64,000 nucleotides of DNA, from the NCBI RefSeq assembly GCF_027322205.1, contig NZ_DAHVHY010000001.1:11060-75059 (forward strand), written 5' to 3'. Below are positions 29,308 to 48,183 of the stretch, piece after piece. Every line of letters starts with the position of its first letter. Position 1 is the stretch's first letter. The notes under the pieces were generated by a model, which did not search any database, had not been told where the DNA came from, and saw nothing but the letters and a program-made list of their open reading frames with translations. The translations under genes were made by a program, and so were the position numbers. Origin of the DNA: Acidithiobacillus sp. (GTDB lineage: Bacteria > Pseudomonadota > Gammaproteobacteria > Acidithiobacillales > Acidithiobacillaceae).

Positions 29308-30090
29308 ATGCTAGAAACGATAACACTATGTATTTTGGCAAGTATAATATCCAGCCAAATCGTGCTTACCATGCTAATCCTTTGCCCTCGCTGCAAATTG
29401 ATCAGCCCAAACTTAGTCCGCCTGCCCCAAGCCGCTATCGCACGTCGCGAAATTGCTCTCACCTTCGACGACGGGCCACATGCAGAAATAACCCCGCAAA
29501 TACTAGATCACCTAGATCTACATAACGCCAAAGCCACCTTTTTTTGCATTGGTGAGAAAGTTGCTGCGCACCCGAATTTAGTCGCCGAAATAATGCGTCG
29601 AGGCCATAGCGTAGAAAATCACAGTTATCGCCACAATACGCTTTTCGCCTTCAGCAGCCCAAGTTTATTAGCGAACGACATTGTTAAAACGCAAAAAGCC
29701 ATCGAAGCTGCGACACATGGAACAGCACCACGTTTCTTCCGCGCGCCTTTTGGCTTTCGCAGTCCATTCTTGGGCAGGGTATTACGGCGACTGGGCCTGC
29801 AACACGTCGCGTGGACTCGACGTGGTTACGACACGACATCTCGAAATCCAGACACCGTGCTCCGCCGCCTCAGCCGCAATCTGGCCGCCGGAGACATATT
29901 GTTATTGCATGACGGCAAACCAGGGCTAGTTGTGTTACCCAGACTACTAGAACTGTGTAGCCATAAAGAACTACGTAGCGTGTCTTTATCCATGATATTT
30001 AAGGATGTCGAAACGCCCCCACAAATATGCAACCGTACCATGACAAGTGCTGGCGGTGATCACACACCATCGACGAATGCGCCGAGCTAA
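29308..30090 (+). CDS. Polysaccharide deacetylase (CE4/NodB family), membrane anchored
   Basis: TFDDGP, NHSYRH, RAPFG, DILLLHD motifs; N-terminal hydrophobic helix. Confidence 0.9.
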   Translation: MLETITLCILASIISSQIVLTMLILCPRCKLISPNLVRLPQAAIARREIALTFDDGPHAEITPQILDHLDLHNAKATFFCIGEKVAAHPNLVAEIMRRGHSVENHSYRHNTLFAFSSPSLLANDIVKTQKAIEAATHGTAPRFFRAPFGFRSPFLGRVLRRLGLQHVAWTRRGYDTTSRNPDTVLRRLSRNLAAGDILLLHDGKPGLVVLPRLLELCSHKELRSVSLSMIFKDVETPPQICNRTMTSAGGDHTPSTNAPS

Positions 30091-30137
30091 CTAGTTCAGT
30101 GTAGCTTTTATAGAAAGCGCCACTGGAGGAACGACAG

Positions 30138-31460
30138 ATGACCAAAGAACAACAGACATCAAACGCACATCCTGTGACACACGAATGTGACGTTCTGGTT
30201 ATAGGTGGCGGACCGGCAGGCTCGACGATCGGTGCGCTACTCGCAAAGCGCGGCTACCAAATCACCATACTAGAAAAAGCACATCATCCAAGATTTCATA
30301 TAGGTGAATCCCTGCTCCCCGCCAATTTACCGCTGCTGCAGAAATTGGGTGTTGCCCAAGAGGTAGACCAGATTGGGATGAAAAAATGGGGTGCAGAATT
30401 CAACTCGCCCTACCATACAAAGAAAAGAGAAACCTTCTTATTTGCCGATGCATGGGACAAGTCCATGCCCATGGCCTATCAGGTCAGACGCGCAGACTTC
30501 GATGATATTCTGTTTCGCAATGCGCGCAAAAAAGGCGCGACGACGATTGAGGGATGCCGGGTCCAGTCGGTTGAATTTTTGCCGCACGGAAAAGGTGCCA
30601 TAGTTCATGCCCTCCGCGAAGATGGATCGACAGAAATATGGAAAGCACGGTTCCTGGTTGATGCATCCGGTAGAGATACATTTCTCGGAACACGCTTCAA
30701 GACCAAACAGAACAACCCAAAACATAACAGCTCTGCCCTTTATGCGCATTTCCGTGGGGCACATCGCCTCCCCGGCAGTGAAGAGGGACATATTTCGCTA
30801 TTCTGGTTTGAACATGGGTGGTTTTGGTTCATCCCGTTAGCCGACGGAACTACCAGCGTGGGAGCGGTGGTATGGCCCTCTTATCTCAAAACACGAAAGA
30901 AACCCGTGGAAGATTTCTTTGCGGATACCATTGCCATGTCTCCCGATCTAGCGATGCGATTAGCAGACGCGCAGCGCGTGACCGATGTCGAAGCTACTGG
31001 CAACTACGCCTATATCTGCGAGCAGACCCATGGGGAAAGTTTCCTCATGTTGGGGGATGCATTCGCATTTTACGATCCCGTCTTTTCGTCGGGCGTCATG
31101 CTCGCCATGCAAAGCGCCTTTATCGGTGCCGATACGATTGATACTTGCCTGCGACAACCGCGACGTGCCGCCGCCGCGCTGCGTCACTTTGACCGGAAAG
31201 TTCGGCACGGAGGCAAGGTATTCTCCTGGTACATTTATCGCATGTCACAGCCCACCCTGCGCGATATGTTTATGTTTCCGGGCAATCAGGCACGAACCAA
31301 AGAGGCCGTACTATCCGTTCTCGCAGGAGATATTTTCAATAAAACACCGATTTGGAATTCCCTACGGATCTTCAAAATGGTCTATTACCTGACGTCGCTG
31401 CGGCACCTCGGAGCGTCTTGGGCCGCATACAAAAAACGAAAGGAAAACATCAGGATTTAA
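30138..31460 (+). CDS. Flavin-dependent halogenase-family protein
   Basis: GGGPAG FAD motif, HHPRFHIGESLLP, KKWGA, WFWFIP, GDAFAFYDPVFSSGV. Confidence 0.85.
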   Translation: MTKEQQTSNAHPVTHECDVLVIGGGPAGSTIGALLAKRGYQITILEKAHHPRFHIGESLLPANLPLLQKLGVAQEVDQIGMKKWGAEFNSPYHTKKRETFLFADAWDKSMPMAYQVRRADFDDILFRNARKKGATTIEGCRVQSVEFLPHGKGAIVHALREDGSTEIWKARFLVDASGRDTFLGTRFKTKQNNPKHNSSALYAHFRGAHRLPGSEEGHISLFWFEHGWFWFIPLADGTTSVGAVVWPSYLKTRKKPVEDFFADTIAMSPDLAMRLADAQRVTDVEATGNYAYICEQTHGESFLMLGDAFAFYDPVFSSGVMLAMQSAFIGADTIDTCLRQPRRAAAALRHFDRKVRHGGKVFSWYIYRMSQPTLRDMFMFPGNQARTKEAVLSVLAGDIFNKTPIWNSLRIFKMVYYLTSLRHLGASWAAYKKRKENIRI

Positions 31461-31462
31461 CC

Positions 31463-32527
31463 ATGCGCTTAGATGACGTCATGACAACAGGCACTGGCAC
31501 GCCGCTTACGCTTACTTATGCTCCGGCAGCAGTGGCATTAAACAATGACGCGTTGCGCACAGAAAACATTCTCGGTATCGTGCTGTTCGATAGTCCACTC
31601 GGCGCGGGGATCGGTGCTGACCAAAATAGTGGCATTCTAAAAACCCCCCTGAGCATTTACGGATCTGATGTCTGTGAAATCTGGAGTACCACACAGAGCG
31701 TAATTCCTGGACACTATTTGGATATACGCTATCGGCGCAGCGCAACCCTAACTTTGGGCAGTATCACCCTGGCTATAACATCACCACCTGACGATGGCGA
31801 CAACTTCAGTCCCCCGCCCATTCAGTCATGCGCTCAAGAAGCCTATCAGCAAATATTCACTCTCCTCCAAGAGAGTGGACATCTTCACCTACTCCGCGTC
31901 TGGAATTTTTTACCCGATATCAACGGTGCCACGCACGGCTTGGAACACTATCGCCAGTTCAATATTGGGCGCGCAAGTTCGTTTATTACCCACAACCGAC
32001 TTAGCGAAGAAAGTAGCATTCCCGCCGCGAGTGCTGTAGGGACATCCTCCGCAAATTTAGTCGTACACTTTCTCGCCGGACAGCACAAATCTGTAGCTCT
32101 GGAAAATCCCCGACAGATTAGCGCCTATTGCTATCCCAAAAAATATGGGCCATGCAGCCCTACCTTCTCGCGCGGCGGATGGCTCAAGCTAGATCAGCAA
32201 CATGCCTTATTTATTTCCGGAACCGCCAGCATTGTTGGCCACGACACCTTGCACATCGGTGATGTCGCCGCACAAACCCAGGAAAGCATACGGAACATTT
32301 CTGCGGTTATCGATGAAGCGAATCGCGTCGCCGGGCATCATTTATATAACTTGAACATGTTGAGCTATCGCGTCTATTTTCGCAATACTGCAGACTTAAC
32401 CGTTATCCAAACAGAGCTGAATCGGCTTATCGAACCCCTTACGGAAACGCTCTATATTCAGGCCGATATCTGTAGATCTGAACTCCTCGTGGAGATTGAG
32501 GGCACTGGCGGAGTCGTACACTTATAA
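31463..32527 (+). CDS. Chorismatase, FkbO/Hyg5/XanB2 family
   Basis: RVWNFLPDIN, YRQFNIGR, PAASAVG, ENPRQISAY, FISGTASIVGH, DICRSELLVEIEG. Confidence 0.88.
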   Translation: MRLDDVMTTGTGTPLTLTYAPAAVALNNDALRTENILGIVLFDSPLGAGIGADQNSGILKTPLSIYGSDVCEIWSTTQSVIPGHYLDIRYRRSATLTLGSITLAITSPPDDGDNFSPPPIQSCAQEAYQQIFTLLQESGHLHLLRVWNFLPDINGATHGLEHYRQFNIGRASSFITHNRLSEESSIPAASAVGTSSANLVVHFLAGQHKSVALENPRQISAYCYPKKYGPCSPTFSRGGWLKLDQQHALFISGTASIVGHDTLHIGDVAAQTQESIRNISAVIDEANRVAGHHLYNLNMLSYRVYFRNTADLTVIQTELNRLIEPLTETLYIQADICRSELLVEIEGTGGVVHL

Positions 32528-32815
32528 AATTAAGAAATACCCCATATCTATTTGCATAATATCATGACAACATTCTCATATGTTCATAAACAGCCGGGTT
32601 AAAATTAGTAATAGTCCTTTTTCTGAAAACGACTGCTTGCAAAGCAAACTATTTATTCCGGTGATTTACTTTTTGACATGTTTCTGGTATACAAGCCTTT
32701 CGTGATTTTGATCCTGAAAAAAAGAGACTGAACTTAAATCGTACTGGCTAATTTAAACCATATTCGATAGATTTAGGTTCAGCACCATTCGACCCATCAC
32801 ACCGAGAAAATACCA

Positions 32816-33262
32816 ATGAAATCAAATAAAAACATCGCCAGACTATTATCTGTCACCTGCCTTGCCTCAGGACTGATCGGCTGCGCAACCCAAGAACATC
32901 AGCCTGTATCGACTACTGCGGCATCCCAGGTCAGTGCCGTAGTGGTAGCCCCTACGGCAAGTACTGCCTCGGCACTGGACAGAGCTGCCGAAAAAACCAA
33001 CGTCCTCCCCACCCCAGGATCGCCATTCTCCAAATTGAAGATAGGCATGTCCCGACGCCAGGTTGAGCAACTGATCGGCTTTCCGGATCACACATCGAGC
33101 CACATTACCGGCAAGCAATTTATTCCATTTTACTTCGGCGGAGACACTCGCCGTACAGAAGCGTCTTATAAGGGCCAGGGTATCCTTACTTATGACAACA
33201 ACTCTCGATTTGGATCAACGGATACTTTGCTTATAATAACGGTGGACACAAATACCCCGTAA
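32816..33262 (+). CDS. Lipoprotein, SmpA/BamE-like domain
   Basis: Lipobox LIGC after a basic N-terminus; KLKIGMSRRQVEQLIGFPD. Confidence 0.75.
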   Translation: MKSNKNIARLLSVTCLASGLIGCATQEHQPVSTTAASQVSAVVVAPTASTASALDRAAEKTNVLPTPGSPFSKLKIGMSRRQVEQLIGFPDHTSSHITGKQFIPFYFGGDTRRTEASYKGQGILTYDNNSRFGSTDTLLIITVDTNTP

Positions 33263-33331
33263 AAAAGACAATGTCTCGTTGTAAATCATACCGACCGGAA
33301 ATCAGCAGCTCCAGCACCAATCGCGAAGCTG

Positions 33332-33360
33332 TTGACACAAATTTTAACTCGTGATAAAAA
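33332..33360 (+). promoter_or_regulatory. Possible sigma70 promoter for the acyltransferase-glycosyltransferase pair
   Basis: TTGACA (33332-33337), 17 nt, TAAAAA with TG upstream; -10 imperfect. Confidence 0.35.
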
Positions 33361-33516
33361 CCAAGAAAATTCAGTTAAGTTATTTAAGATCATTATTTCT
33401 GCTTAAGGTAGCGTCGATGTTGGACGGCATACAGACTAAGGGTCGGATATCCATGCAGATACATACTAATCGGGTGCGGGTGCAGGCCAGCCCATCGCGA
33501 TCAATATCTCTATCCT

Positions 33517-34296
33517 ATGGGCATTATTGATAAAATACGTTCTGCCCGAGAATACGTAGTATTCTACGTTGGTCTCGCGCTCTTGGCGAGCATTAGTCTT
33601 TTATGGTCTATTTTTGCGCTACCCATGAACATTATACTTCCCACAAAGTGGCGGAAGTTAACGGGGCGATGGGTTATTTCCATGGGGTTTAGGCTGTATC
33701 TACGGGCATTATCCGCTCTCGGTGCGTGCCATTTTGATATTAGCGCACTCGATACACTCAGCGATGAATCACCGATGGTCATCGCACCGAATCATCCCTC
33801 CCTGCTCGACGCGGTTATGATCCTTTCGCGCATGCCGCGCCTAGCATGCATCATGAAGGCGGAGTTGGTAGATAATCCATTTTTTGGCGCCGGCGCGCGC
33901 CTGGCCTGTTACATTCGTAATGACGCCATACGCCACATGCTTCACCTTGCCGTGGAGGAACTGCGCAGTGGCAGTCATTTGCTTCTTTTCCCGGAAGGCA
34001 CTCGCAGTCATCCTCTTCCCATCGGAACCATACGGGGCAGCATTGCGCTGATTGCCAAGCAGGCCCATGTCCCCATTCAGACCATATTAATCACCGCAGA
34101 CTCTCCCTTTCTCGGGAAGGGATGGCCCTTCTTTCGCAAGCCAGCCATGCCTATTCACTACCGTATAGAGATAGGCCGCCGCTTCGATCCGCCAACGGAC
34201 GTACGCCGCACCATAGCGGAACTGGAAGCCTATTTTCACTCGGCTCTGCCCGGCGAACCCTGTGCACCAGGCGTCGCGGCAGCAGACGAGTGTTAA
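33517..34296 (+). CDS. Lysophospholipid acyltransferase (PlsC-like)
   Basis: NHPSLLD (HxxxxD), FPEGTRS. Confidence 0.9.
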   Translation: MGIIDKIRSAREYVVFYVGLALLASISLLWSIFALPMNIILPTKWRKLTGRWVISMGFRLYLRALSALGACHFDISALDTLSDESPMVIAPNHPSLLDAVMILSRMPRLACIMKAELVDNPFFGAGARLACYIRNDAIRHMLHLAVEELRSGSHLLLFPEGTRSHPLPIGTIRGSIALIAKQAHVPIQTILITADSPFLGKGWPFFRKPAMPIHYRIEIGRRFDPPTDVRRTIAELEAYFHSALPGEPCAPGVAAADEC

Positions 34297-35060
34297 TGAA
34301 ACAATCCTCCAACACCCACTTAGTGCTTATTCCGAGCTACAACCCCGGGCCTAAAGTATATGAGACCGTGACTGCGGCACGTCAGCATTGGAGCCCTGTC
34401 TGGGTCGTCGTGGACGGGAGCACCGACGGCACGGCAATAGGCCTCCAGGAATTAGCGCGCCGGGATAGTGGATTGCGCATTCTTCTCCTCTCCCACAACC
34501 GTGGCAAAGGAGAAGCTGTACGATGTGGCTTGGAGCAAGCCCAGGCACAGGGCTATACCCATGTGTTGACGATGGACTCTGACGGTCAGCATCCCGCCGG
34601 GGCGGTTCCCGCATTTATGCAAGCATCTGCCGACAACCCTGACGCCATGATCCTCGGCGTACCGGTTTTTGATGCCAGTGCCCCCGCTCTTCGGGTAAAA
34701 GGTCGCAAGATATCGAACTGGTGGGCCAACCTGGAAACATTAGGCGGGGGTATCAGTGACTCCCTCTTTGGCTTTCGCGTTTATCCCCTCGTCCCCCTGC
34801 AGCGCCTCATGCACAAACAGCGCTGGATGCGGCGTTTCGATTTCGATCCAGAAGCCGCTGTACGAATGTCCTGGATGGGAATTCGCATTATCAACTTACC
34901 GGCGCCCGTGCGTTATTTTGAGACCAGCGATGGCGGGGTTTCTCATTTTCATTACCTGCGTGATAATGTTCTGTTGACCTGGATGCATACCCGTTTATTT
35001 CTTGGTTTTATAATACGCCTGCCGATGTTATTGGCGCGCCGGATACGGCAGCAGCATTAG
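34296..35060 (+). CDS. Glycosyltransferase family 2
   Basis: LIPSYN, VVDGSTDGT, NRGKGEA, MDSDGQH, DSLFGFRVYP; TAATG overlap with upstream gene. Confidence 0.92.
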   Translation: MKQSSNTHLVLIPSYNPGPKVYETVTAARQHWSPVWVVVDGSTDGTAIGLQELARRDSGLRILLLSHNRGKGEAVRCGLEQAQAQGYTHVLTMDSDGQHPAGAVPAFMQASADNPDAMILGVPVFDASAPALRVKGRKISNWWANLETLGGGISDSLFGFRVYPLVPLQRLMHKQRWMRRFDFDPEAAVRMSWMGIRIINLPAPVRYFETSDGGVSHFHYLRDNVLLTWMHTRLFLGFIIRLPMLLARRIRQQH

Positions 35061-35087
35061 CTGTCATATGCCCCGCTGTTCAGTATT

Positions 35088-36386
35088 TTAAGTAGCAACG
35101 GCCTCCCCATGTTGCCCATGCACATGGGGTAACCAGCGCCGCAGCAACGGCGTTGTGACGACGGTGCTCACAATAGCCATAATGACCAGCATAGTAAAAA
35201 CATTTTCTGAAATGGCCCCCATATCATAACCCACATTAATGACAATAAGCTCCATGAGTGCTCTGGTGTTCATCATGACCCCAATGATTTTCCCCTGATG
35301 ATGATTCAATCCTGAAATCCGTGCGGCGACATACACGCCAGCAAACTTAGAGATCGTCGCCAATATCAATATTAAACCACACCAAATCCACAAGCCCAGG
35401 CCATCGAGCGCGGCAATATTAGTTCGCAAGCCGGTATAAGTAAAAAATATTGGCAGAAAAAAAACCAAAACGAAAGGGGCAACACGCTCTTGCCATAGCC
35501 TGGAAAAAGCGACTTCGTCATACAATATGACGCCCATAATAAATCCACCAAATATCGTAAATATTCCTAACGCTGAGGTGATCATACCCGAGATTAATAT
35601 GCCCACTAAGACAATCCCCAGAAAAGTCGCAGATATCTCATGCTCGGCATGAAAGTGGCGGATCGCCCATTTCATGAGTGGCCGAACGAAATAAAACCAC
35701 GCCAGGACAAAAAGTAAAACGAAAAATACCTTGGCCAAAAATAAGGGAAATTGAAATTGCGCAAGCGCCAAGGCCGTTACCAGTGCGAGTAACAACCAGC
35801 CCACCACGTCATTTATCGCTGCAGCACTGATTGCGATCACCCCAAGCCGAGATTTTGTTATGCCCAGCTCCATCATAATGCGACCGAGAACAGGAACAGC
35901 CGTAATGGAAAAAGCGGTAGCCACAAAGAGCGCCGAAACCCAGCGGTTTGCCTCCGGAGAAAGCAGAGGGGCGCTCATGAAGCCCACGCCAAAACCCGTA
36001 GCAAATGGTAACAAGAGGCTAGCCATCGCTATCCATAACACTACACGGCGATTGGCTTTTTCCTTAAGATGCGAAAAATCAAATTCCAGGCCGACCTGAA
36101 ACATCAGCAAGATAAGGCCTAACTGGGAAAGGACATCTAACGGCCCTGACGGAATAGAATGGAAAACCCAATGAAAAGGAACGGGCATTATCCAGCCGAA
36201 TAATGAAGGACCCAGCAGAATTCCCGCAATAATTTCTCCAACAACAGTGGCCTGGGCTATTCTAGCAGCAAAGCTTCCCGCAAGGCGCGCGGCCAGAATA
36301 ATAATGCAAAGTTGTGCCAAGGTAAAAAATACCAGACGTTCGGATTGCTGGGTTGCCAAATCCGCAACATGCTTACCAATGGTCAT
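35088..36386 (-). CDS. Cation:proton antiporter (CPA2/Na_H_Exchanger)
   Basis: GEIIAGILLGPS, LMFQVGLEFD, SITAVPVLGRI, AINDVVGW, MNTRALMELIV; about 12 TM. Confidence 0.9.
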   Translation of the reverse strand: MTIGKHVADLATQQSERLVFFTLAQLCIIILAARLAGSFAARIAQATVVGEIIAGILLGPSLFGWIMPVPFHWVFHSIPSGPLDVLSQLGLILLMFQVGLEFDFSHLKEKANRRVVLWIAMASLLLPFATGFGVGFMSAPLLSPEANRWVSALFVATAFSITAVPVLGRIMMELGITKSRLGVIAISAAAINDVVGWLLLALVTALALAQFQFPLFLAKVFFVLLFVLAWFYFVRPLMKWAIRHFHAEHEISATFLGIVLVGILISGMITSALGIFTIFGGFIMGVILYDEVAFSRLWQERVAPFVLVFFLPIFFTYTGLRTNIAALDGLGLWIWCGLILILATISKFAGVYVAARISGLNHHQGKIIGVMMNTRALMELIVINVGYDMGAISENVFTMLVIMAIVSTVVTTPLLRRWLPHVHGQHGEAVAT

Positions 36387-36402
36387 AAAATTGTTTCTAT
36401 GT

Positions 36403-38376: not shown

Positions 38377-38393
38377 AGCAATACCCCGGTTCG

Positions 38394-39899: not shown

Positions 39900-40163
39900 A
39901 TGCCCCTTACCCCGGAAGAAGTAGACTTGAGCCGTTTAATTATAAAATCCTTGAACCTGCCAATGGACCCTTTGCAGGTAGATCCTGAGGCCCCACTTTA
40001 TGGCGGCCCACTGGGCCTGGATTCTATCGACCTCCTGGAGCTTTCCATGGTCATCACCAAGAAATACGGGGTAATGTTATCTAGCGAAGGAGCCAATAAA
40101 ACAGAGATATTCAGTTGCTTAAGAACCCTCTGTCATTACGTACAAAATCATCAGGCGGACTAA
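39900..40163 (+). CDS. Acyl carrier protein (XanC-like)
   Basis: GLDSIDLLEL phosphopantetheine site; GGAG RBS. Confidence 0.92.
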   Translation: MPLTPEEVDLSRLIIKSLNLPMDPLQVDPEAPLYGGPLGLDSIDLLELSMVITKKYGVMLSSEGANKTEIFSCLRTLCHYVQNHQAD

Positions 40164-40196
40164 GCACAAGGCTTGCCCTGCACCAAACCACCGCGC

Positions 40197-42563
40197 TTAC
40201 AACGTCTGTTCTATTATTACTGTCCTTCGCTCAGCCAAGCTGGCAGAAAACAAAAGCGCCAATACCACGCCTGGTGCAACAGTGGCGCCGATCGCCTGAA
40301 GGACCGGGACGCCGGAGAACGCCAGAGGCGCAAAACCGATAAGCGTAGCCAGATTGGCAACAACCAGAGATACCAAAGTACGCGATGAGCCTTCGCCGTT
40401 CATCTGTCCACTACGATCAAAGAATAGTGCGTAGTTAGACCCCACCGCAACTATCAACATCAGTCCGATGAGGTTCAAAATATTCAACTCGATGCCCATC
40501 ACCACGAATCCGGCTGCCACCGAAAGTACCGCAGCAATTAATGGTAACATGATTCGAACAACGCGAATCACGGATCGAAAGACTACCAATAATAAAATAA
40601 TAATACCTAAAACACCGGTCAGAGAAAGCTTGAGGGCATTTCTGATATACCCGGAATAAAGCGTATTTGTGGCTCCGGAAATATCGACAAACATAACATC
40701 ATCAACATGGTGCTGCCTCATGACGGCCTGCACGGCCTCAGGGTTGATCTTACCGGATGATGGCGCCATAACCGGTAACAATACACTCCACTCCTGGCCC
40801 TGATGGACAAGCATACTGTCTACAATTTGCCGGATACCTGTTGGCAGCTCAGCATAAGTCAGTGGCGGCAGCCTCCGCTCCCGCTCTACCGCTTGGACAA
40901 ACGGGGAGAGCCGTGATGCTGACACTGGCAATCCGCGCAGCGCTTCTGCCAAACGCGCGGTCAGAATTTTTTTCGGAGGCAAGGCAGATATACGCTCCAC
41001 TTGCGATTCCACACCGGGCAAAAAACGAGTAGGGGTTTGAAAACCTCCGATAATGCCAGAGACTTGGAGTTGTTCTAACAGCGGGTCTATTTTACTGGCT
41101 TTTTCCAGCGCCCGATTACGGGTTGGTCCGGAAACCACTAGCAGATATCCTGCATCAGGTATTCCCATATCCTTACGCAACTTCGCATAGAGTAACTGAT
41201 CGGCTTTAGGAACCGGACTAAGTGCCGACAGCTCGTGACTCCAGATATGATCACGATGGACAACCAAAATGCCACTCGCAATAACTGTCAATGAAATAAC
41301 AACCCATCTTGCGGACGACAGCATACGCATAATGTCGACAAGAATACCACCCATCCGCTCGAAATCGCGCCGTTTAAAATGATGCAAGGGCAAGCTCGGC
41401 AATACAAAACGGGTAACACCCGCGGCGGTGAGTAGGCCGGCAATAGCATAGAGGCCGAGCTGTGCGAGCCCTGGCAGGTTAGAAAACAGCAGACTGGCAA
41501 AACCGGCCACTGAAGTGAACACGCCCAGCCTGATGATGGGCCAATATTTTTTGCTCCATAATTCCGCGCCGGCAGCCATTTCCCCGGCCTGCACGAAGAA
41601 ATAGATTGAATAATCTACCGCCTCCCCGATCAGCGCTGTGCCGAATCCCAAAGTGATATCATAAACCACCCCAAAACCTAAAGACACCGCAGCGATACCA
41701 ACGATAACACCAGACATCACGGGTACAAGGCTGAATGCCAGCACCGCCAGCGACCGGTAGACGAACAACAGCAACATAATAATTAATGTGCCACTTATCA
41801 GCGACATCAACTCTGCGGCATGGATGATCGTATCGCGCGCCGCCACAGAAATCACACCCACACCAGTCAACTGTAACCTGGTGTTTTGGCCAGAGCTCCC
41901 CATGTCCCTTTGCGCCAACCTGAATATCTTTTTTATAGTAGCTATCGCCTGTTGTTGTGCGTCACTATCCGATCCCGGAAATCGCGTCTGCAACACAAGC
42001 AATGCGCTATCTCCGGTCGACGATACCCACACACCATCCAGGACTCGCGGCTTCGCCATTCCACGCATCCCCTTGGCCATGCCAATCATGGCTCCAGTAG
42101 GGTCACTCGGGAAAAGCGCTAGCATTGCCTCACCGCCTGGAGTAGCCAGGTCATTGAGTGTCTTTTCTATCGCATCATGCAGACCTTTTACCGAAAATAG
42201 CTCCGGCTTGGTAGCTGCACTCAACAAATAGCGATGCGCGAACAGATAATTATATATTTTTGAATTAACGCCCGCATTCCCATTACTCACAAATTTAAAT
42301 TGGCTATTTTTACGGAGATCGAGAGCCATTCGCGCGGAAATACGCGCCCTTGCAGCGGCATCGCCGCCATTTATCGCCACTAAAATCTTGCGTGAGAGCA
42401 CACCATTACGCAACTGTTCGTTCAACAGCTCTTGCTGTGCGCTAGGTGATTTTGGCAAAAATTCGGATAGCGTCGACTCAAATTTTGTATTGATGATTAC
42501 GCCAATGGCGCCGATCAGTATCGCCAGCCACACTCCCAGAATCAACCACCGGAATTTTCTCAT
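40197..42563 (-). CDS. MMPL/RND-family lipid exporter (XanM-like)
   Basis: Two TM blocks with GEAVDYSIY and GSNYALFF, two large periplasmic loops. Confidence 0.88.
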   Translation of the reverse strand: MRKFRWLILGVWLAILIGAIGVIINTKFESTLSEFLPKSPSAQQELLNEQLRNGVLSRKILVAINGGDAAARARISARMALDLRKNSQFKFVSNGNAGVNSKIYNYLFAHRYLLSAATKPELFSVKGLHDAIEKTLNDLATPGGEAMLALFPSDPTGAMIGMAKGMRGMAKPRVLDGVWVSSTGDSALLVLQTRFPGSDSDAQQQAIATIKKIFRLAQRDMGSSGQNTRLQLTGVGVISVAARDTIIHAAELMSLISGTLIIMLLLFVYRSLAVLAFSLVPVMSGVIVGIAAVSLGFGVVYDITLGFGTALIGEAVDYSIYFFVQAGEMAAGAELWSKKYWPIIRLGVFTSVAGFASLLFSNLPGLAQLGLYAIAGLLTAAGVTRFVLPSLPLHHFKRRDFERMGGILVDIMRMLSSARWVVISLTVIASGILVVHRDHIWSHELSALSPVPKADQLLYAKLRKDMGIPDAGYLLVVSGPTRNRALEKASKIDPLLEQLQVSGIIGGFQTPTRFLPGVESQVERISALPPKKILTARLAEALRGLPVSASRLSPFVQAVERERRLPPLTYAELPTGIRQIVDSMLVHQGQEWSVLLPVMAPSSGKINPEAVQAVMRQHHVDDVMFVDISGATNTLYSGYIRNALKLSLTGVLGIIILLLVVFRSVIRVVRIMLPLIAAVLSVAAGFVVMGIELNILNLIGLMLIVAVGSNYALFFDRSGQMNGEGSSRTLVSLVVANLATLIGFAPLAFSGVPVLQAIGATVAPGVVLALLFSASLAERRTVIIEQTL

Positions 42564-43240
42564 GGAGTAGACGAATTTCTTATACTAATAAACGACCAAT
42601 CGTGATTTACTTTTACAATTTCAATACTGCGTACCATGTTCCCGATACCACTAACAGCGATATGCTTGATCTGCTTTGCAAACGCATTTTGCTTCGGCAC
42701 CAGAATTAACGTCCAGCTATTTTTGTTGCCTTTTAGGGAAAGCATAAAATGCGTCTCCAATAGCTCCGTATTTCCGGTCAACACCCCGCGAATACTATCG
42801 ACAAAAGCGAGCAGTTCCGGATGATCGTCCAATTGAATAGTATATTTATCCATGGTGAGAACATCGCCTTGCACCAGCATCACCTGATCTCTGGGTTTGA
42901 CGGTGTGCATTTCCAGCGTATCCGGTGCCACAAAGCGCATATTACCAGATGATTGTATTGGCTTATCCAAAAACCCAATATGTTTTGTCTCTACAAAAGA
43001 GGCATGGCTAGACTTCACCTGCGCCAACATATGCATTAACTCTGTTATGTTCCAGTCTGCCGCGGAGGCCGCTTGTGTTAGCATGGAGCCCCCGATGAAA
43101 AATGCGAGAACGGCACCAATGGCATATCGTCTGGGCAGATAGAATATTCGTCGAAGCAGTAGTGATCTGAGAAATAAAATGTTAATACCCGGCGCAGTGA
43201 CCGCGACCGGCGACTCCGGTTGAGCGCGCTCAATACTCAT
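42560..43240 (-). CDS. LolA-like periplasmic lipid carrier
   Basis: FVETKHIGFLDKPIQSSGNMRFVAPD, WTLILVPK; start uncertain but ATGA-coupled. Confidence 0.8.
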   Translation of the reverse strand: MSIERAQPESPVAVTAPGINILFLRSLLLRRIFYLPRRYAIGAVLAFFIGGSMLTQAASAADWNITELMHMLAQVKSSHASFVETKHIGFLDKPIQSSGNMRFVAPDTLEMHTVKPRDQVMLVQGDVLTMDKYTIQLDDHPELLAFVDSIRGVLTGNTELLETHFMLSLKGNKNSWTLILVPKQNAFAKQIKHIAVSGIGNMVRSIEIVKVNHDWSFISIRNSSTP

Positions 43241-44196
43241 TTTAAATGACCCTCTTTCACTTTAATATTATAATTATTTGCCCAAAAATCATAAAAGTTA
43301 AACCAATTATAAGGAGCCATATGGCAGTATTTTTCAACCTCATTGACATATTTTAACATCGCATCCTGAATAGCCTTGTCCCGATCCAGTTTCTCTACAG
43401 AAGAAAAATCGGCAATCTGCGTTATAAATATTTCATAGTGCCCTGGACCCGTATAAAGGCCGGCCATAAAATACAAAGGCCGATTGAGCAGCGCCGCAAT
43501 ACGAAAAGTGCCGCTCGGCCATGCGGCGGGCTCTCCGAGAAAAGGGATAACCCGCTTTTTCTCTGACCCGACAGACCGGTCACCGAGGAAACCAACCAAC
43601 GCACCCATTTCCAATTGCTCCTGAACACGCAGCATCGTGTCCCAGCGGCCTAACGGGATAATATTAGGCCGCTCTCCGGTTTTCATACTCGCCAGCGTGG
43701 CATTGAGTTTTTTTGCGTTATCCTCATACATAACCATCACCACTGGCACCCCAGGATACTTCAGGCCGACAGACCGCAATACCTCAAAGCTGCCCAGGTG
43801 CGCACCCACCAGCAGGGCACCACGCATATCGGCAATCGCCTGTTCCACGTCTTCGGACAAATGCGACTGGATAGTAAACGATGAATCATCATTACTGAGC
43901 AGATACACTCTATCGTGAATCGTCGTAGCAAACGTCAGGAAATGACGATAGATATCTCTGGCATCGGCGCGGCGCCCGAGAACGCGGGTAAGGTAGGCCC
44001 GGGAGGCAACCCGCGCAGCGGGCGCAAAAAGCATAAAATAGCCCGCAATCAAATACAACACCACACGACCAACAGTCCTTCCCATCTTTTTCGAAATCCA
44101 GATCATCAGGCGCAGCATAAATCGGCTTCCCCGCTCGGGGCTACTAAACCACTCGTTATCCGGCGATTGTTGAACCGTGCTGAACCGGTGAACCAT
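43237..44196 (-). CDS. LpxL-like lipid acyltransferase
   Basis: W..PERGS, GAHLGSFE, LGDR, PYNWFNFYDFW. Confidence 0.88.
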   Translation of the reverse strand: MVHRFSTVQQSPDNEWFSSPERGSRFMLRLMIWISKKMGRTVGRVVLYLIAGYFMLFAPAARVASRAYLTRVLGRRADARDIYRHFLTFATTIHDRVYLLSNDDSSFTIQSHLSEDVEQAIADMRGALLVGAHLGSFEVLRSVGLKYPGVPVVMVMYEDNAKKLNATLASMKTGERPNIIPLGRWDTMLRVQEQLEMGALVGFLGDRSVGSEKKRVIPFLGEPAAWPSGTFRIAALLNRPLYFMAGLYTGPGHYEIFITQIADFSSVEKLDRDKAIQDAMLKYVNEVEKYCHMAPYNWFNFYDFWANNYNIKVKEGHLK

Positions 44197-44198
44197 TA

Positions 44199-44528
44199 TT
44201 AGAGTCGCTCCAAAACATGCCCAGAGAAGTCGCCGGATGCGACCAGACGAGCGCCCGCATGGACTTCAAAGGTCATGGGCAGAGCATCTGCTACGAGCAC
44301 GCGAAGATTCAGCAATTCACCAGGTGCCGCCGTGCTGTAGAATTTCGCCGAGCTAATACTGCAATCATTTATCGGCAAATCTCCCGTTGCGGCTATAGCG
44401 CAAACAATCTCATCCAGAAGCAAGGCGGCGGGCACAATCGGATTTCCCGGAAAATGGCCAGCGAATACTGGGTGCCCAACCGGAATGGTAAACCTATGGT
44501 CATAATATTTCAGACGAACGCTCCTCAT
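44199..44528 (-). CDS. Hotdog-fold dehydratase subunit (ApeI-like)
   Basis: HPVFAGHFPGNPIVPAALLLDEI. Confidence 0.88.
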   Translation of the reverse strand: MRSVRLKYYDHRFTIPVGHPVFAGHFPGNPIVPAALLLDEIVCAIAATGDLPINDCSISSAKFYSTAAPGELLNLRVLVADALPMTFEVHAGARLVASGDFSGHVLERL

Positions 44529-45861
44529 TACCCATCAAAGCTTCGACCATTGCTTTTAAGGCTTCTCGTGAGATCTTACCGGTAGTGTTCCTAGGCAGGC
44601 TATCCACGATCTTTAGCGGGCGAGGAATAAACGCTGGATCCACACACTGCTTGAGCCGCTCAATTATTATTTCTACATCCATGTCCGGGGCCACCGCAAA
44701 TGCCACTAAACGTGTCACTCGCCCATCAGCACTTTCATCGGGCATAAAAAACACCCCATCCAGAACTCCGGAGACAGCTGTGAGCTGATGATTTAAATGT
44801 GAAATAGAACTACGTTTCCCTGCTATATTTACGAGATCCTCCATCCGCCCATATAACAGAAAATGTTGTTCATCCACTATTTCTACGGCGTCGCCAACCG
44901 CCATCGCCTGCTGCAAATGCCCGCCCTGTATCCTAATCCGATCACCCTTCGTCATCCACGACAACCCCGGGAGTAAATGCCATTCCTTCGTTTGGCTCGT
45001 GCGCCGCGTTGCCACTACGCCAGTTTCCGTAGAGCCATAAATTTCGAGCAGCTCGCCGCCAAAGCGGGCTTCTGCGCTTACCGCGAGATCCCGAGTTAGT
45101 GGTGCCGTGGCCGAAAGCAACAAATCCACACTTGGCAATGGCGTATCAGTAGCGAGCATAGAACGAAGGTGAACAGGAGTACTGATCAAAACGCGCGGTC
45201 GCGCTACTGAGGAAATCCCTGCATAGATATCCGCTGGGTAGAAATAGCGCTCCGTGGCGATTATACCAGCACATTGCCACAGCATAAGAATGGTAGATTC
45301 AAAGCCATACATATGCTGTGGTGGAACGGTACCTACCACCGTGTAGGTGCGGCCATCGAGCAAGCCCAGGCGCTGAGCCTCCGCCCGCACCGAATGCACG
45401 AGATCTCCCCATGTTTTAAGGTGAGGAACGGGTATTCCGGTCGACCCCGATGTAAACACGTAAGCCACCGGGAGCGATTCATCCAGGCGCGGAATAGTGG
45501 GTGAGCTATCGACAGGCGCATCTGGCAGAACAATCGGAAACGCCAGGTATGGGAAGCCCATATCATTCCCATCATCGCCAATGCAAAACAGGTCTGGCGC
45601 GAAATCGACTATTTTTTTAACACTTTCGGTGGTGTACGTGGAAGGCAGCAGGCTGGTTTTCCCGGCAACCATTGCCGCCGCGAGGCCTACCATGAAATGG
45701 TACCGATCCTGACAGGTATTCAGCAAATGCTGTCCAGGCCGGAGTAACTGTCGGATATGGTTCACATCAGCCAGGAATTGTCGCAGAGTGACACCTCGGC
45801 CTTGGCGAATGGCCACGGCATCATCCAGTGATTGATGCGTCATCATCGGGAGATAATTCAT
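44500..45861 (-). CDS. Aryl-AMP/acyl-ACP ligase (XanA2-like)
   Basis: FTSGSTGIPVPH, TVPPQHMYGFE, YGSTETG, GRMEDLVNIAGKR, LPRNTTGK. Confidence 0.88.
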   Translation of the reverse strand: MNYLPMMTHQSLDDAVAIRQGRGVTLRQFLADVNHIRQLLRPGQHLLNTCQDRYHFMVGLAAAMVAGKTSLLPSTYTTESVKKIVDFAPDLFCIGDDGNDMGFPYLAFPIVLPDAPVDSSPTIPRLDESLPVAYVFTSGSTGIPVPHLKTWGDLVHSVRAEAQRLGLLDGRTYTVVGTVPPQHMYGFESTILMLWQCAGIIATERYFYPADIYAGISSVARPRVLISTPVHLRSMLATDTPLPSVDLLLSATAPLTRDLAVSAEARFGGELLEIYGSTETGVVATRRTSQTKEWHLLPGLSWMTKGDRIRIQGGHLQQAMAVGDAVEIVDEQHFLLYGRMEDLVNIAGKRSSISHLNHQLTAVSGVLDGVFFMPDESADGRVTRLVAFAVAPDMDVEIIIERLKQCVDPAFIPRPLKIVDSLPRNTTGKISREALKAMVEALMGNEERSSEIL

Positions 45862-45908
45862 ACCTAGAAAAACCCCCTGTTTAAAAAATAAACATCATAA
45901 ATTCCAAA

Positions 45909-46670
45909 TCATGAATCCGATTTTATAATAGCAACGGATTGCCTGTCGGCAAAATAAGCCCGGACGCCAGCCCCCATACTGCCCCGCTCACTGATGGGGA
46001 TTTGGCGACAACGGACAGCGTATTCAATGATAAACATTAATGCAATCAATACGGTGCTAGTCGTACCGGAAATCAATACCCATACATGCTGCCCAAGGAT
46101 AAAAAATATTAAAAACAATAAAATTGCCAGCGCTGTAAAGAATAGTGTCCATGCCACCGTCACCTGGCGCGTATAGCGCGCCAGTCGTGCATTCAGTGGA
46201 CCATGCACCATCTCTGCAATCCGCGAGACGAGCGGTATGTGGCCGGAGCGCAAAGTGAGTCCGAAAGCAAATGCTAACAGGGTAAACAACGCACTCCGCT
46301 GCACCATACATATCCAGCCAATATAGTGCGCAATAGTCGCACTATTACGCCATATTATTACGCCAGAAATAGCAGCCAGCATAATCCAAAACGCCTTAAA
46401 GCGCGCGCATCCAGACACCAGAAATAGGGCAACAATAATGGGTGTAAATGCCGAAAGTACAACTAGTGCATTCGGATTTTTTGCAGAGATATCCACATAG
46501 GTGAGCATTTGATAGCCGATCAGGACAGACAGAAAAAGTACACCTTTCCAAAAAGCATGCACGCTGCCAGCGTTACGCCCCGTCGCCATCAACGCTGCAC
46601 CTTTATCAAGAAGAACTCCCACACCTTTTCTCCTTAAAAAATCGGCCATAAAATGGGGAAGGCGTATCAT
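45909..46670 (-). CDS. Integral membrane protein (COG4648-like) of aryl polyene clusters
   Basis: FGLTLRSGHIPLVSRIA..ARYTRQVTVAWTLFF..FIIEYAVR; start uncertain. Confidence 0.75.
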   Translation of the reverse strand: MIRLPHFMADFLRRKGVGVLLDKGAALMATGRNAGSVHAFWKGVLFLSVLIGYQMLTYVDISAKNPNALVVLSAFTPIIVALFLVSGCARFKAFWIMLAAISGVIIWRNSATIAHYIGWICMVQRSALFTLLAFAFGLTLRSGHIPLVSRIAEMVHGPLNARLARYTRQVTVAWTLFFTALAILLFLIFFILGQHVWVLISGTTSTVLIALMFIIEYAVRCRQIPISERGSMGAGVRAYFADRQSVAIIKSDS

Positions 46671-46729
46671 ATTGGCACGTTACAGCGCAGTTGTTTCAGA
46701 AAGTGATAATGATCCCGCCTGATTCTTTA

Positions 46730-47050
46730 TCACTTGGGAGGGGGCAGCGAACGATTATTCGCCGTACCGCGCCCCCGCAGGGCGCTCCAAAATTCGATCG
46801 CTCCACCCTTTGCCGCATGCCCAACGTCGACTGCAGTTTTCGCAATCCCAACACCAACCTCTTTCCCGACCTGACCGATTCTATGTGCGGTGGAACCAAG
46901 CGCGCGCCCGACATGCTGGGCTTCGCGCTTCAAAGGCACACCATTGGCGTACACCGCCACCGGGAACGCGAGGCTGATCACAAGCGTCAATAACGCGATG
47001 AACGCCATGTTCGTTTTAGTGGTGTTTTTGAACTGATGACATTTTCTCAT
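46730..47050 (-). CDS. Small secreted amphipathic hypothetical protein
   Basis: Signal peptide ending VYA, Gly/Ala/Val/His-rich helical repeats; GGGGTG RBS. Confidence 0.6.
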   Translation of the reverse strand: MRKCHQFKNTTKTNMAFIALLTLVISLAFPVAVYANGVPLKREAQHVGRALGSTAHRIGQVGKEVGVGIAKTAVDVGHAAKGGAIEFWSALRGRGTANNRSLPPPK

Positions 47051-47139
47051 AACACCCCCAAGCATTTCCTCAACGTCGCATGCTTGAACCTATAGACAAC
47101 TGGAGTTGCCCTAATCAAATTGCGCCGACCTCGTGCTCT

Positions 47140-48150: not shown

Positions 48151-48183
48151 GGTACGGTCCTTTACTGGAAGAGGATTAATCAT

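Follow-up and report, generated by a model that had tools for sequence, protein, structure and literature searches.

A very probably functional xanthomonadin-type aryl-polyene gene cluster in an Acidithiobacillus ferrivorans-like acidophile

Introduction

The experimentally verified arcuflavin loci of Azoarcus (PMC3949708, Table 1) carry, gene for gene and in the same order, what we found at the locus described here, as matched by annotation and order: an arcA-arcK arm that includes the antiporter gene arcG, and an arcN-arcV stretch that matches the other arm. Azoarcus BH72 makes a xanthomonadin-dialkylresorcinol (DAR) hybrid from unlinked loci. Its ArcB produces both 3- and 4-hydroxybenzoate (3- and 4-HBA) and ArcT activates 3-HBA, while the pigment is unbrominated although halogenase genes are present. 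In Xanthomonas, roles have been described for XanB2, XanA2, XanC and XanH (PMC6859482), whose counterparts here were assigned by role rather than by direct sequence alignment. The full aryl-polyene (APE) lipid of Xenorhabdus is an APE ester of GalNAc-phosphate-diacylglycerol, and the roles of ApeD, ApeJ, ApeM and ApeL in that organism match the acyltransferase, family-2 glycosyltransferase (GT2), MMPL and LolA genes at our locus.

Acidithiobacillus is already represented among these systems. Schöner et al. 2014 (Table S7) classed Acife_2836-2854 of A. ferrivorans SS3 (19 locus tags) as xanthomonadin-type, and A. ferrooxidans likewise. The cluster type was thus on record for A. ferrivorans in 2014, and the unstudied product is the sole new element: our literature search turned up neither chemistry for the product of any Acidithiobacillus nor a paper reporting a pigment, so that the original reading is not contradicted by an identical cluster of known chemistry.

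Results

A 19-gene cluster in an A. ferrivorans-like strain

We analysed a 64-kb stretch of DNA (the window), in which a Pfam and NCBIfam domain inventory identified 19 contiguous intact genes at 29308-47065:

29308-30090, plus strand: CE4 polysaccharide deacetylase, sharing its annotation with Azoarcus arcN (PF01522, 108.9 bits)
30138-31460, plus strand: FADH2-dependent halogenase, arcA position (PF04820)
31463-32527, plus strand: chorismatase of the Hyg5/XanB2 kind (PF21168, 106 bits; PF01042, 22 bits)
32816-33262, plus strand: small lipoprotein (lipobox LIGC, residue 20)
33517-34296, plus strand: PlsC-type (lysophospholipid) acyltransferase, arcD/ApeD position (PF01553, 57.7 bits)
34296-35060, plus strand: GT2, arcE/ApeJ position (PF00535, 68.5 bits)
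35088-36386, minus strand: CPA2 monovalent cation:proton antiporter, membrane domain only, arcG position (PF00999, 184 bits)
36403-37125, minus strand: 3-oxoacyl-ACP reductase FabG/KR, XanH/FabG3, arcH and ApeQ role (NF004200)
37118-37576, minus strand: ApeP-like hotdog dehydratase DH1, arcI position (ortholog profile)
37567-38376, minus strand: chain-length factor-like ketosynthase partner (CLF), ApeC/arcJ type (PF13723, 92 bits)
38394-39587, minus strand: elongating ketosynthase (KS), ApeO/arcK type (NF006618, PRK09185)
39900-40163, plus strand: dedicated acyl carrier protein (ACP), XanC/arcV/ApeE role (PF00550)
40197-42563, minus strand: MMPL/RND-type exporter, ApeM/arcP role (PF03176)
42560-43240, minus strand: LolA-like periplasmic carrier, ApeL/arcQ role (PF19574, 59 bits)
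43237-44196, minus strand: LpxL/lipid-A-type acyltransferase, arcR position (PF03279, 55.5 bits)
44199-44528, minus strand: small FabZ/ApeI-like hotdog dehydratase subunit DH2, arcS position (PF07977, 23.3 bits)
44500-45861, minus strand: aryl-acid adenylating AMP ligase, XanA2/ArcT/ApeH role (PF00501)
45909-46670, minus strand: polytopic membrane protein of 253 aa, arcU position, possibly ApeG role (conserved position)
46730-47065, minus strand: small secreted protein of 111 aa at the cluster edge (N-terminal hydrophobic segment)

The starts of the chorismatase, GT2, antiporter, FabG and DH1 genes were re-set downstream of the mechanical ORF starts on the basis of ortholog lengths and start codons. 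All gene classes of the original prediction were recovered in place, and its count of 17 genes rises to 19 with the last two genes listed.

The nearest loci were those of A. ferrivorans, A. ferriphilus and A. ferrianus, and the KS was 93% identical to that of A. ferrivorans strain SS3. The host is an A. ferrivorans-like strain, and the earlier suspicion of an acidophile was correct. Comparison with A. ferrivorans DSM 22755 likewise bore out the reported lack of frameshifts: all 19 proteins were alignable at 74-99% identity in full synteny, the whole query was covered in 16 of them, and the remaining three fell short by at most 11 residues. We conclude that the locus is very probably a complete and functional xanthomonadin-type APE type II PKS cluster on the chromosome of such a strain; the core of the original reading withstood each check applied to it.

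The single KS/CLF pair, single ACP, added antiporter and gene order had been taken to set the locus apart. They do distinguish it from clusters of the E. coli/Xenorhabdus type. Among xanthomonadin/arcuflavin-type clusters, however, this layout is normal: it is known from Azoarcus, and all four features, the Na+/H+ antiporter included, recur in A. ferrooxidans and Sulfuriferula.

Starter, loading and elongation enzymes

The chorismatase ATG (31463) lies directly 3' of the halogenase stop. Its best PDB match was Hyg5 (5ag3, 147 bits), while it scored 201 bits against TIGR04444, under the cut-off of 325. A Gly (in GTAS), a Cys and a Glu align with Hyg5 G240, C327 and E334, the roles of which have been described (PMC7170507), and by analogy the enzyme is predicted to yield a hydroxybenzoate starter, namely 3-HBA and possibly also 4-HBA. 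For the AMP ligase, the top NCBIfam model was 4-coumarate-CoA ligase (under cut-off) and the best PDB match was 4-chlorobenzoate-CoA ligase. It carries the motifs TSGSTG(137), YGSTE(275) and GKISR(428), and a role in loading hydroxybenzoate onto the ACP is predicted. The ACP gene, divergent from the KS operon, encodes a protein scoring 87.6 bits against NF006617 (cut-off 70) with DSI at Ser42. The halogenase matched genuine halogenases best (8zop, 203 bits; CndH 3e1t, 190; PltA, 185), and it has a complete set of flavin-halogenase motifs, GGGPAG(23), WFWFIP(228) and GDA...FYDPVFSSG(306-319), together with a Lys that aligns with CndH K76, the catalytic Lys.

The elongation enzymes supported the proposed xanthomonadin/aryl-polyene identity. 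The KS scored 534 bits against NF006618 (PRK09185; cut-off 407), and its best PDB matches were to ApeO (6qsp_A, 266 bits; 7f28_B, 240 bits) with FabF at most 178, so that it does not group with ordinary FabF, as anticipated. Its triad Cys163/His292/His326 (ACSSS, HGTGT, GHTLGAAG) was present as predicted, as was the DSI of the ACP. The CLF matched only ApeC chains (7f28_A and 6qsp_B) and consists of an N-terminal KS domain alone, without the catalytic Cys-His-His. FabG scored 356 bits against NF004200 (cut-off 273) and 267 bits, under cut-off, against the flexirubin FlxB model, and has the motifs NNAG and YAAAK. For DH1, a single-sequence Pfam search returned nothing at E<=0.01 (ApeP-like only at E=0.017); a profile built from eight orthologs, in which PH.G.M.LLD and EY.AQ are invariant, matched ApeP 6qsr_B over nearly its full length (E=1.1e-5). 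DH2 carries GHFPG...LLLDE and matched FabZ structures at E=1.7e-4, with ApeI 6qsr_A weak by sequence (only E=0.5). Precomputed annotations of the orthologs in A. ferrooxidans, Sulfuriferula and Polaromonas assign DH1 to PF22817 and DH2 to PF22818 (ApeI-like).

Predicted pathway

By analogy with characterised relatives, we infer which starter is used, how the chain is made and anchored, where the product resides and what it does for the cell, as follows. The chorismatase would convert chorismate to 3-hydroxybenzoate, perhaps with some 4-hydroxybenzoate, which the AMP ligase would adenylate and load onto Ser42 of the dedicated ACP. The KS:CLF heterodimer would then perform repeated malonyl extension, each round being processed by the FabG-like reductase and the two-subunit ApeP/ApeI-like dehydratase; with no enoyl reductase acting, a conjugated aryl polyene would therefore form on the ACP. 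The flavin halogenase may add halogen to the ring or chain. A glyco(phospho)lipid anchor, with the polyene esterified to it, would be the work of the two acyltransferases (PlsC-type and LpxL-type), GT2 and CE4, and the MMPL/RND pump, LolA-like carrier, lipoprotein and membrane protein would deliver the product to the outer membrane, where it would most likely act as an antioxidant and photoprotectant. The glycolipid anchor and the defence against Fenton stress, put forward originally in somewhat too strong terms, may apply. Genes for a flavin reductase, a phosphopantetheinyl transferase, a malonyl transferase and a methyltransferase are all absent from the cluster, and the pathway would thus depend on housekeeping enzymes.

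Alternative explanations

Several features would suit an island acquired by horizontal transfer, now cryptic or decaying, from which no product arises in nature. The cluster has a GC content of 0.51, its flanks 0.59-0.61, with GC3 lower too; the A. ferrooxidans cluster sits at a different locus; in A. ferrianus the chorismatase-halogenase-deacetylase arm has been lost; under laboratory conditions the ape cluster of Xenorhabdus stays silent; and an Acidithiobacillus pigment has not been reported. Against this stand the 19 intact ORFs with their catalytic residues kept, dN/dS of about 0.07-0.3 for most genes versus three relatives, which indicates purifying selection, and a single chromosomal site shared by A. 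ferrivorans, A. ferriphilus and A. ferrianus. We found neither mobility genes nor a tRNA nor flanking repeats. Transcription of KS and ACP, implied by the original prediction, is likewise supported: homologues of these and other cluster genes occur in RNA-seq assemblies of related strains and in an environmental (mine-drainage) metatranscriptome, evidence that consists of assembled contigs from strains about 90% identical to the host and may include DNA carry-over (contigs in run X23 reach 110 kb). With contig depth a poor measure of expression, the run X24 RNA assembly was deepest over ACP, where the bin mean was 1619 compared with 305 for the KS contig, and a contig just 5' of ACP (39834-39893) had a depth of 2924. 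We therefore consider a cryptic island unlikely.

The two other readings concern the product. Considering that Azoarcus BH72, the nearest characterised system by gene order, makes its xanthomonadin-DAR hybrid from unlinked loci, and that our view of the genome spans only 64 kb, the polyene could be esterified to a dialkylresorcinol (arcuflavin/flexirubin-like) through darA/darB elsewhere, with no glycolipid. This is very unlikely: the window contains no KAS-III (DarB-like) gene or other dar candidate, its family-matched genes outside the cluster are all housekeeping, Schöner et al. class A. ferrivorans SS3 and A. ferrooxidans ATCC 53993 as plain xanthomonadin type and list a DAR cluster for neither, and GT2, CE4 and the two acyltransferases point to a sugar-lipid anchor. 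It is more improbable still that the main product is a non-aryl conjugated fatty acyl lipid, or 4-hydroxybenzoate for ubiquinone, with an aryl polyene secondary or absent. The Xenorhabdus ape machinery does also yield a conjugated C26:5 fatty acyl chain, Xanthomonas XanB2 also feeds ubiquinone synthesis, and the A. ferrianus PKS genes are under purifying selection despite having no in-cluster chorismatase. Yet a dedicated aryl-acid ligase, related best to 4-chlorobenzoate and 4-coumarate ligases, lies beside the ApeI-like dehydratase; chorismatase, ligase and ACP together form the defining xanthomonadin loading module; and the second lipid chain of Xenorhabdus has been attributed to an additional ACP, whereas there is one ACP here.

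Lipid attachment, export and accessory genes

The CE4 protein, with motifs TFDDG(52), HSYRH(105), RAPF(145) and LLH(199), probably removes the N-acetyl group from the sugar in the lipid anchor; its gene is also found in the A. ferrooxidans, Sulfuriferula and Polaromonas clusters, where GT2 is conserved at 69-71% identity (A. ferrooxidans L064 in this comparison). The GT2 motifs are DGSTD(98) and DSD(152), and its ATG overlaps by 1 nt the stop of the PlsC-type acyltransferase gene, which encodes HPSLLD(93) and FPEGTR(158). The LpxL-type enzyme has HLGSFE(133). Under-cut-off matches were obtained for MMPL with the HAE3 and HpnN-like models, for the LolA-like protein with the flexirubin LolA2 model (57.8 bits) and for the antiporter with TIGR00932 (150 bits against 238). 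The antiporter gene starts 17 nt past the FabG stop on the same strand; an ortholog 69% identical lies at that position in A. ferrooxidans and one 59% identical in Sulfuriferula, and the Azoarcus (arcG) and Dechloromonas clusters contain one too.

The lipoprotein varies by strain (74% identity in A. ferrivorans DSM 22755, 97% in MAG L002) and has no counterpart in the A. ferrooxidans cluster; it shows weak SmpA/OmlA (BamE-like) similarity (PF04355, E=5e-4, under cut-off), and the Sideroxydans cluster includes an SmpA/OmlA gene. Neither the 253-aa membrane protein nor the 111-aa secreted protein matched a Pfam or NCBIfam family. The former has orthologs at the same position in L064, L065 and L066 (37-45% identity), the latter a 53% identical homologue at the same position in A. 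ferrooxidans, where both genes are kept beside the AMP ligase.

Gene content and intactness of the cluster

The aryl-polyene (APE) type II polyketide synthase cluster spans window positions 29308-47065, where coding density is high and every gene class of the original prediction was confirmed by Pfam and NCBIfam scans. The original prediction counted 17 genes; its gene classes stood, while the count rises to 19 with two extra ORFs, one for a polytopic membrane protein of 253 aa and one for a secreted protein of 111 aa; in A. ferrooxidans, both have homologues that adjoin the AMP ligase gene.

Genes of the cluster (window positions where individual genes are discussed; DH1 and DH2, hotdog dehydratases; KS, ketosynthase; CLF, chain-length-factor-like protein).
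Plus strand, in order: CE4 deacetylase, FAD-dependent halogenase, FkbO/Hyg5-family chorismatase, small lipoprotein, PlsC-type acyltransferase, GT2
Minus strand, in order: CPA2 antiporter, FabG-type reductase, hotdog protein (DH1, 37118-37576), Ketoacyl-synt_2 (CLF-like) protein (37567-38376), KS (38394-39587)
39900-40163, plus strand: ACP, 87 aa
Minus strand, in order: MMPL transporter, LolA-like protein, LpxL-type acyltransferase, small FabZ-like hotdog protein (DH2, 44199-44528), AMP ligase

The cluster had been described as lacking obvious frameshifts, and this was borne out by alignment to A. ferrivorans DSM 22755, in which all 19 proteins found counterparts at 74-99% identity (16 over the full query, the other three short by at most 11 residues). 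The starts of the chorismatase, GT2, antiporter, FabG and DH1 genes were moved downstream on the basis of ortholog lengths and start codons, and with the corrected starts neighbouring genes abut closely or overlap, as is typical of co-translated operons. The HX4D, FPEGTR, DSD, TFDDG/HSYRH, YxxxK, TSGSTG and DSI motifs were all present. Scanning the cluster for promoters and terminators returned 27 against 21±4.9 and 25 against 21.2±4.4 in shuffled sequences, and because these counts were no higher than in the shuffles, no operon boundaries can be claimed.

Polyene core enzymes

The type II polyene core is complete, with a stand-alone KS, a CLF-like protein carrying an N-terminal KS domain only, a ketoreductase (KR), hotdog dehydratases and a dedicated ACP. 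The KS passed the NCBIfam model PRK09185 at its curated cut-off (534 bits vs 407) and fell short of that of the FabF model (233 vs 494 bits). Its closest solved structure was ApeO of Xenorhabdus doucetiae (6qsp_A, 266 bits), followed by ApeO of Acinetobacter baumannii (7f28_B, 240 bits), while ordinary FabF structures reached at most 178 bits, so that by these scores the KS is nearer to ApeO than to ordinary FabF. The Cys-His-His triad expected of this enzyme was located at Cys163, His292 and His326. The only PDB matches of the CLF-like protein were the ApeC chains 7f28_A and 6qsp_B, and by these PDB matches the KS:CLF pair is of the ApeO:ApeC kind.

DH1 gave no Pfam match at E<=0.01, either alone or for each of eight orthologs, and a profile built from these eight orthologs matched ApeP (6qsr_B) in the PDB over almost its full length (E=1.1e-5), with the PH.G.M.LLD and EY.AQ motifs invariant among the orthologs. 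DH2 carries the FabZ signature GHFPG...LLLDE and matched FabZ structures, with a weak match to ApeI (E=0.5); its orthologs are labelled PF22818, ApeI-like, in precomputed Pfam annotation. DH1 and DH2 may together form a heteromeric dehydratase of the ApeI:ApeP kind, for which the ApeP-like half is the better supported. The family assignments and residues of the cluster proteins are shown by these sequence comparisons.

Chorismatase, halogenase and ligase

The cluster carries a chorismatase of the XanB2 type, with a YjgF/YER057c/UK114-like domain, which scored 106 bits against PF21168, 201 bits against TIGR04444 and 22 bits against PF01042, just under the 27.3 cut-off of the latter. Its best PDB match was Hyg5. 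When it was aligned to 5ag3, 5a3k (a Cys-to-Ser variant) and FkbO (4bps), a Gly, a Cys and a Glu fell on Hyg5 G240, C327 and E334, the first two of which are both Ala in FkbO. In Hyg5, E334 is the catalytic Glu, and the Gly/Cys pair marks chorismatases that form 3-hydroxybenzoate (PMC7170507). By these residues, the protein is predicted to belong to the 3-hydroxybenzoate-forming CH-Hyg5 / CH-XanB2 subfamily.

The halogenase was nearest to genuine flavin halogenases (8zop, CndH and PltA). It contains GGGPAG(23) as its GxGxxG motif, WFWFIP(228) as its WxWxIP motif, and a Lys within GMKKWGAEF that aligns with CndH K76, and is thus a predicted flavin-dependent halogenase with FAD motif, WxWxIP and catalytic lysine in place. 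The AMP ligase was nearest to 4-chlorobenzoate and 4-coumarate ligases.

Class assignment and comparison with known clusters

A xanthomonadin-type cluster is defined as a polyene cluster with a YjgF-like chorismatase and without dialkylresorcinol (DAR) genes, whereas a PAL/HAL (tyrosine ammonia-lyase) gene would mark the flexirubin-polyene type, and darA/darB in the genome would make a cluster arcuflavin type (Schöner et al. 2014, Table S7). No PAL/HAL domain was detected in the 19 cluster proteins or the other scanned ORFs of the window, and darA/darB were absent within the 64-kb window, as was a pathway methyltransferase. The conserved accessory set is present, comprising GT2, a PlsC acyltransferase, a LolA-like protein, an adjacent exporter and an aryl-acid AMP ligase. 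The identification as a xanthomonadin/aryl-polyene type II PKS was correct, and none of the findings that the original prediction had named as contradicting it was encountered.

The family to which the cluster belongs is well known and very widespread, and this member had already been catalogued. Acife_2836-2854 of A. ferrivorans SS3 (19 locus tags) and Lferr_0930-0943 of A. ferrooxidans ATCC 53993 are both classed as xanthomonadin-type without DAR genes (Schöner et al. 2014, PLoS One, Table S7), so that the cluster type, its layout and its presence in both species were published in 2014. Strain SS3 belongs to the same genus and apparently the same species group as the window strain, and its 19 locus tags compare with 19 ORFs here; its KS (AEM48921.1) is 93% identical to the window KS and falls in the same 90% cluster. 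Both clusters fit the combination of a polyene locus with a YjgF-like chorismatase; SS3 has no DAR cluster listed (Schöner et al. 2014, Table S7), and for the window the statement holds across its 64 kb. The A. ferrooxidans cluster in GCA_018854265.1 differs more, with 37-73% protein identity, no lipoprotein gene and another chromosomal site; there its neighbourhood includes an MFS transporter, DUF481, an HsdM_N fragment, PNPOx and gamma-glutamyltranspeptidase. We found no published study of an Acidithiobacillus aryl-polyene/xanthomonadin cluster, and the AMD genome-mining papers found make no mention of one.

The antiporter, the single KS/CLF pair and the rearranged gene order had been taken as distinctive and could have signified a new variant, but the same features occur in Azoarcus, A. 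ferrooxidans and Sulfuriferula, and they are the standard layout of the xanthomonadin/arcuflavin subtype. In Azoarcus sp. BH72, whose arc clusters specify arcuflavin (a xanthomonadin-dialkylresorcinol), arcA-arcK encode a halogenase, chorismatase, outer-membrane protein, acyltransferase, glycosyltransferase, (ArgC-like) protein, Na+/H+ antiporter, KR, DH, CLF and KS, and arcN-arcV encode a deacetylase, hypothetical protein, exporter, LolA, acyltransferase, DH, AMP ligase, hypothetical protein and ACP (PMC3949708). Likened by annotation and order only, arcA-L and arcM-X correspond to the window cluster as follows: the first arm matches in order from halogenase through KS, the second arm has the same genes in mostly the same order, and the window cluster is essentially both arms joined into one locus. 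It differs in the placement of the deacetylase, beside the halogenase, and of the ACP, between KS and exporter, and it lacks the ArgC-like gene, methyltransferase, two-component regulator and DAR genes. The antiporter lies in the same arm directly after KR in A. ferrooxidans and one methyltransferase gene further on in Sulfuriferula multivorans, is also carried by the Dechloromonas cluster (Schöner et al.), and was absent from the Polaromonas cluster examined. A CPA2 antiporter is retained after the KS-CLF-DH-KR genes in several xanthomonadin-type clusters (Acidithiobacillus, Sulfuriferula, Azoarcus and Dechloromonas).

The pig/xan cluster of Xanthomonas campestris pv. campestris follows the same logic as the window cluster, likened by roles and not by sequence identity. 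Xanthomonas has no antiporter in the table of Schöner et al., whereas the window has the CPA2 antiporter, and xanthomonadins are brominated and O-methylated, whereas the window cluster has no methyltransferase.

The ape clusters of Xenorhabdus doucetiae, E. coli CFT073 and Acinetobacter baumannii share the PlsC acyltransferase, GT2, MMPL pump and LolA-like protein with the window, and among solved structures the window KS:CLF comes nearest to ApeO:ApeC and DH1 to ApeP. The ape core consists of two KS (apeO and apeR), two ACPs (apeE and apeF), a CLF, two DH, a KR and a transporter (Grammbitter et al.). In the window, by comparison, the starter would come from an in-cluster chorismatase, and the halogenase, CE4 deacetylase, LpxL-type acyltransferase and CPA2 antiporter are extra genes. 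Missing from its 19 genes are the second KS (ApeR), the second ACP (ApeF), the thioesterase (ApeK) and the methyltransferase (ApeB) of the ape cluster. The window system probably works like the ape system without being of the E. coli/Xenorhabdus subtype, because it has one KS, one ACP and neither thioesterase nor methyltransferase.

Chromosomal site and variation between strains

In a collection of species-representative genomes, the closest loci were those of A. ferrivorans DSM 22755, A. ferriphilus DSM 100412, related MAGs and A. ferrianus MG, and near-identical DNA was present in mine-drainage and tailings metagenomes. An exact-sequence contig look-up with the window KS gave no match, and the same sequence was present in the protein collection. 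The cluster sits at the same sspB-fbp site in A. ferrivorans, and the fbp-zapD flank is common to A. ferriphilus and A. ferrianus too.

GC content is 0.51 across 29308-47065, compared with 0.61 in 1-28685 and 0.59 in 47140-64000, and GC3 is 0.47-0.61 in the cluster compared with 0.63-0.74 in neighbouring housekeeping genes. There is no tRNA in the window, no integrase or transposase in the flanks and no meaningful direct or inverted repeat at the cluster borders, so the low GC cannot be attributed to a recognisable mobile element. Together these features point to an old horizontal acquisition of the cluster.

A. ferrivorans DSM 22755 differs from the window strain in a mosaic manner, with 83-99.6% nucleotide identity per gene. 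Across 28272-48948, the arm from the ACP to the small protein is 96.7-99.6% identical, the KS 91%, the CE4 deacetylase 88% and the lipoprotein 83%, and the flanking fbp, zapD and sspB are 91-96% identical. This mosaic identity suggests that recombination between strains may have occurred within the cluster.

In A. ferrianus MG (16100-21185 of its locus), the cluster lies beside the same fbp/zapD flank without the arm of lipoprotein, chorismatase, halogenase and deacetylase, in place of which ORF translations read as Tad/type-II-secretion-F-like genes, a YgjP-like hydrolase and ffh; dN/dS is still 0.07-0.23 in those PKS and export genes that are retained. By RNA-assembly contigs of related strains, 32385-33481 and 28842-29228 are the most variable stretches of the window locus. 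In these contigs, the lipoprotein region and a portion of the spacer between sspB and the CE4 gene are missing or substituted, and 385 nt are exchanged for 249 other letters.

Selection and transcription in related strains

Compared with three relatives, most cluster genes had dN/dS of about 0.07-0.3, like the flanking zapD and sspB; artefacts of frame offsets were excluded (GT2 against A. ferrivorans DSM 22755 and A. ferrianus MG, DH1 against the relative L003, and the antiporter against A. ferrianus MG).

Homologues of the cluster genes were found in RNA-seq assemblies of two related organisms (~90% nucleotide identity) and in a mine-drainage metatranscriptome, which is evidence for transcription in relatives, not in this strain. 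DNA carry-over is possible in such assemblies, and the depth of a contig reflects expression poorly. Transcription of the KS and ACP had been named as a point on which the pathway assignment would stand or fall, and homologues of both are present in the RNA-seq assemblies of related strains. In one RNA-seq assembly run (X24), the assembly is broken into contigs of 2-6 kb with unequal depths. The peak falls in the 39788-40451 bin that holds the ACP gene (mean 1619), and a contig immediately upstream of the ACP (39834-39893) reaches about 2900, compared with about 300 for the KS contig and 430-710 for the other cluster contigs. With contig depth taken as a rough guide, the cluster gene with the highest expression is possibly the ACP.

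Proposed pathway

In Azoarcus, ArcB makes 3- and 4-hydroxybenzoate (3-HBA and 4-HBA) and ArcT activates 3-HBA (PMC3949708). Xanthomonas uses XanB2 to make 3-HBA, which XanA2 then joins to the ACP XanC, and an unusual type II PKS including XanH/FabG3 builds the polyene, the product being a membrane-bound yellow pigment that guards against photo-oxidative and peroxidative damage (PMC6859482). The Xenorhabdus APE lipid, the sole full structure known, is a polyene ester on GalNAc, phosphate-linked to diacylglycerol, and its assembly implicates ApeD (a PlsC-type acyltransferase), ApeJ (a glycosyl/acyl-transferase), ApeM (an RND pump) and LolA/LolB-like proteins.

Because the anatomy of the window cluster matches these Xanthomonas, Azoarcus and Xenorhabdus precedents, we infer a sequence from hydroxybenzoate to polyene to lipid. 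Chorismate would be converted to hydroxybenzoate and loaded on the ACP, and iterative KS:CLF, KR and DH cycles without enoyl reduction would give a polyene, possibly halogenated. The polyene would then be moved to a glyco(phospho)lipid built by GT2, the two acyltransferases and the CE4 deacetylase, and the MMPL transporter, LolA-like protein and lipoprotein would serve export to the outer membrane. Starter, chain, anchor and antioxidant role are each predicted by analogy. Products of such clusters are antioxidant outer-membrane lipids, and an aryl-polyene cluster in an iron-oxidising acidophile fits a protective role and adds no new principle.

A more specific reading, which we consider unlikely, is that in iron- and sulfur-oxidising acidophiles the product is a chemically distinct aryl-polyene lipid, perhaps halogenated, unmethylated and with a de-N-acetylated amino-sugar anchor, that guards the outer membrane from Fe(II)-driven oxidative stress, with the conserved and co-oriented CPA2 antiporter as a working part of the pathway. 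In that case the antiporter would not be a passenger and might, for example, couple ion or proton flux to the handling of precursor, halide or product. We found no isolation or chemical characterisation of an Acidithiobacillus pigment in the literature. The practical value of the cluster lies in halogenation, the lipid anchor and antiporter retention as tractable questions in Acidithiobacillus.

Other features of the window

The remainder of the window consists of ordinary core chromosome. The left flank holds RNase P RNA, the dcw cell-wall/division cluster, aroQ, accC, prmA, fis, a lytic transglycosylase and sspB, and the right flank holds fbp, zapD, coaE, pilD/R/S/B, aroE, anmK and hemH. Two adjacent minus-strand ORFs in the right flank, 61143-62249 and 62259-63380 (368 and 373 aa), have no Pfam/NCBIfam match. 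Between ftsZ and aroQ, a 288-aa protein (22435-23301, minus strand) showed weak AurF / ferritin-like di-iron matches (Pfam E=2e-7) and an encapsulin-associated ferritin-like match (E=8e-7) far below the cut-off.

The dcw cluster is complete at 4401-21944 (mraZ, mraW, ftsI, murE, murF, mraY, murD, ftsW, murG, murC, ddl, ftsQ, ftsA and ftsZ), with genes for an AMP-binding enzyme and a poly(A) polymerase/CCA-adding-like protein upstream of it at 339-3452. A full-length bacterial RNase P class A RNA was identified at 3820-4164 on the plus strand (341.8 bits), and a mechanical ORF at 3680-4180 on the minus strand is probably spurious because it overlaps this RNA.
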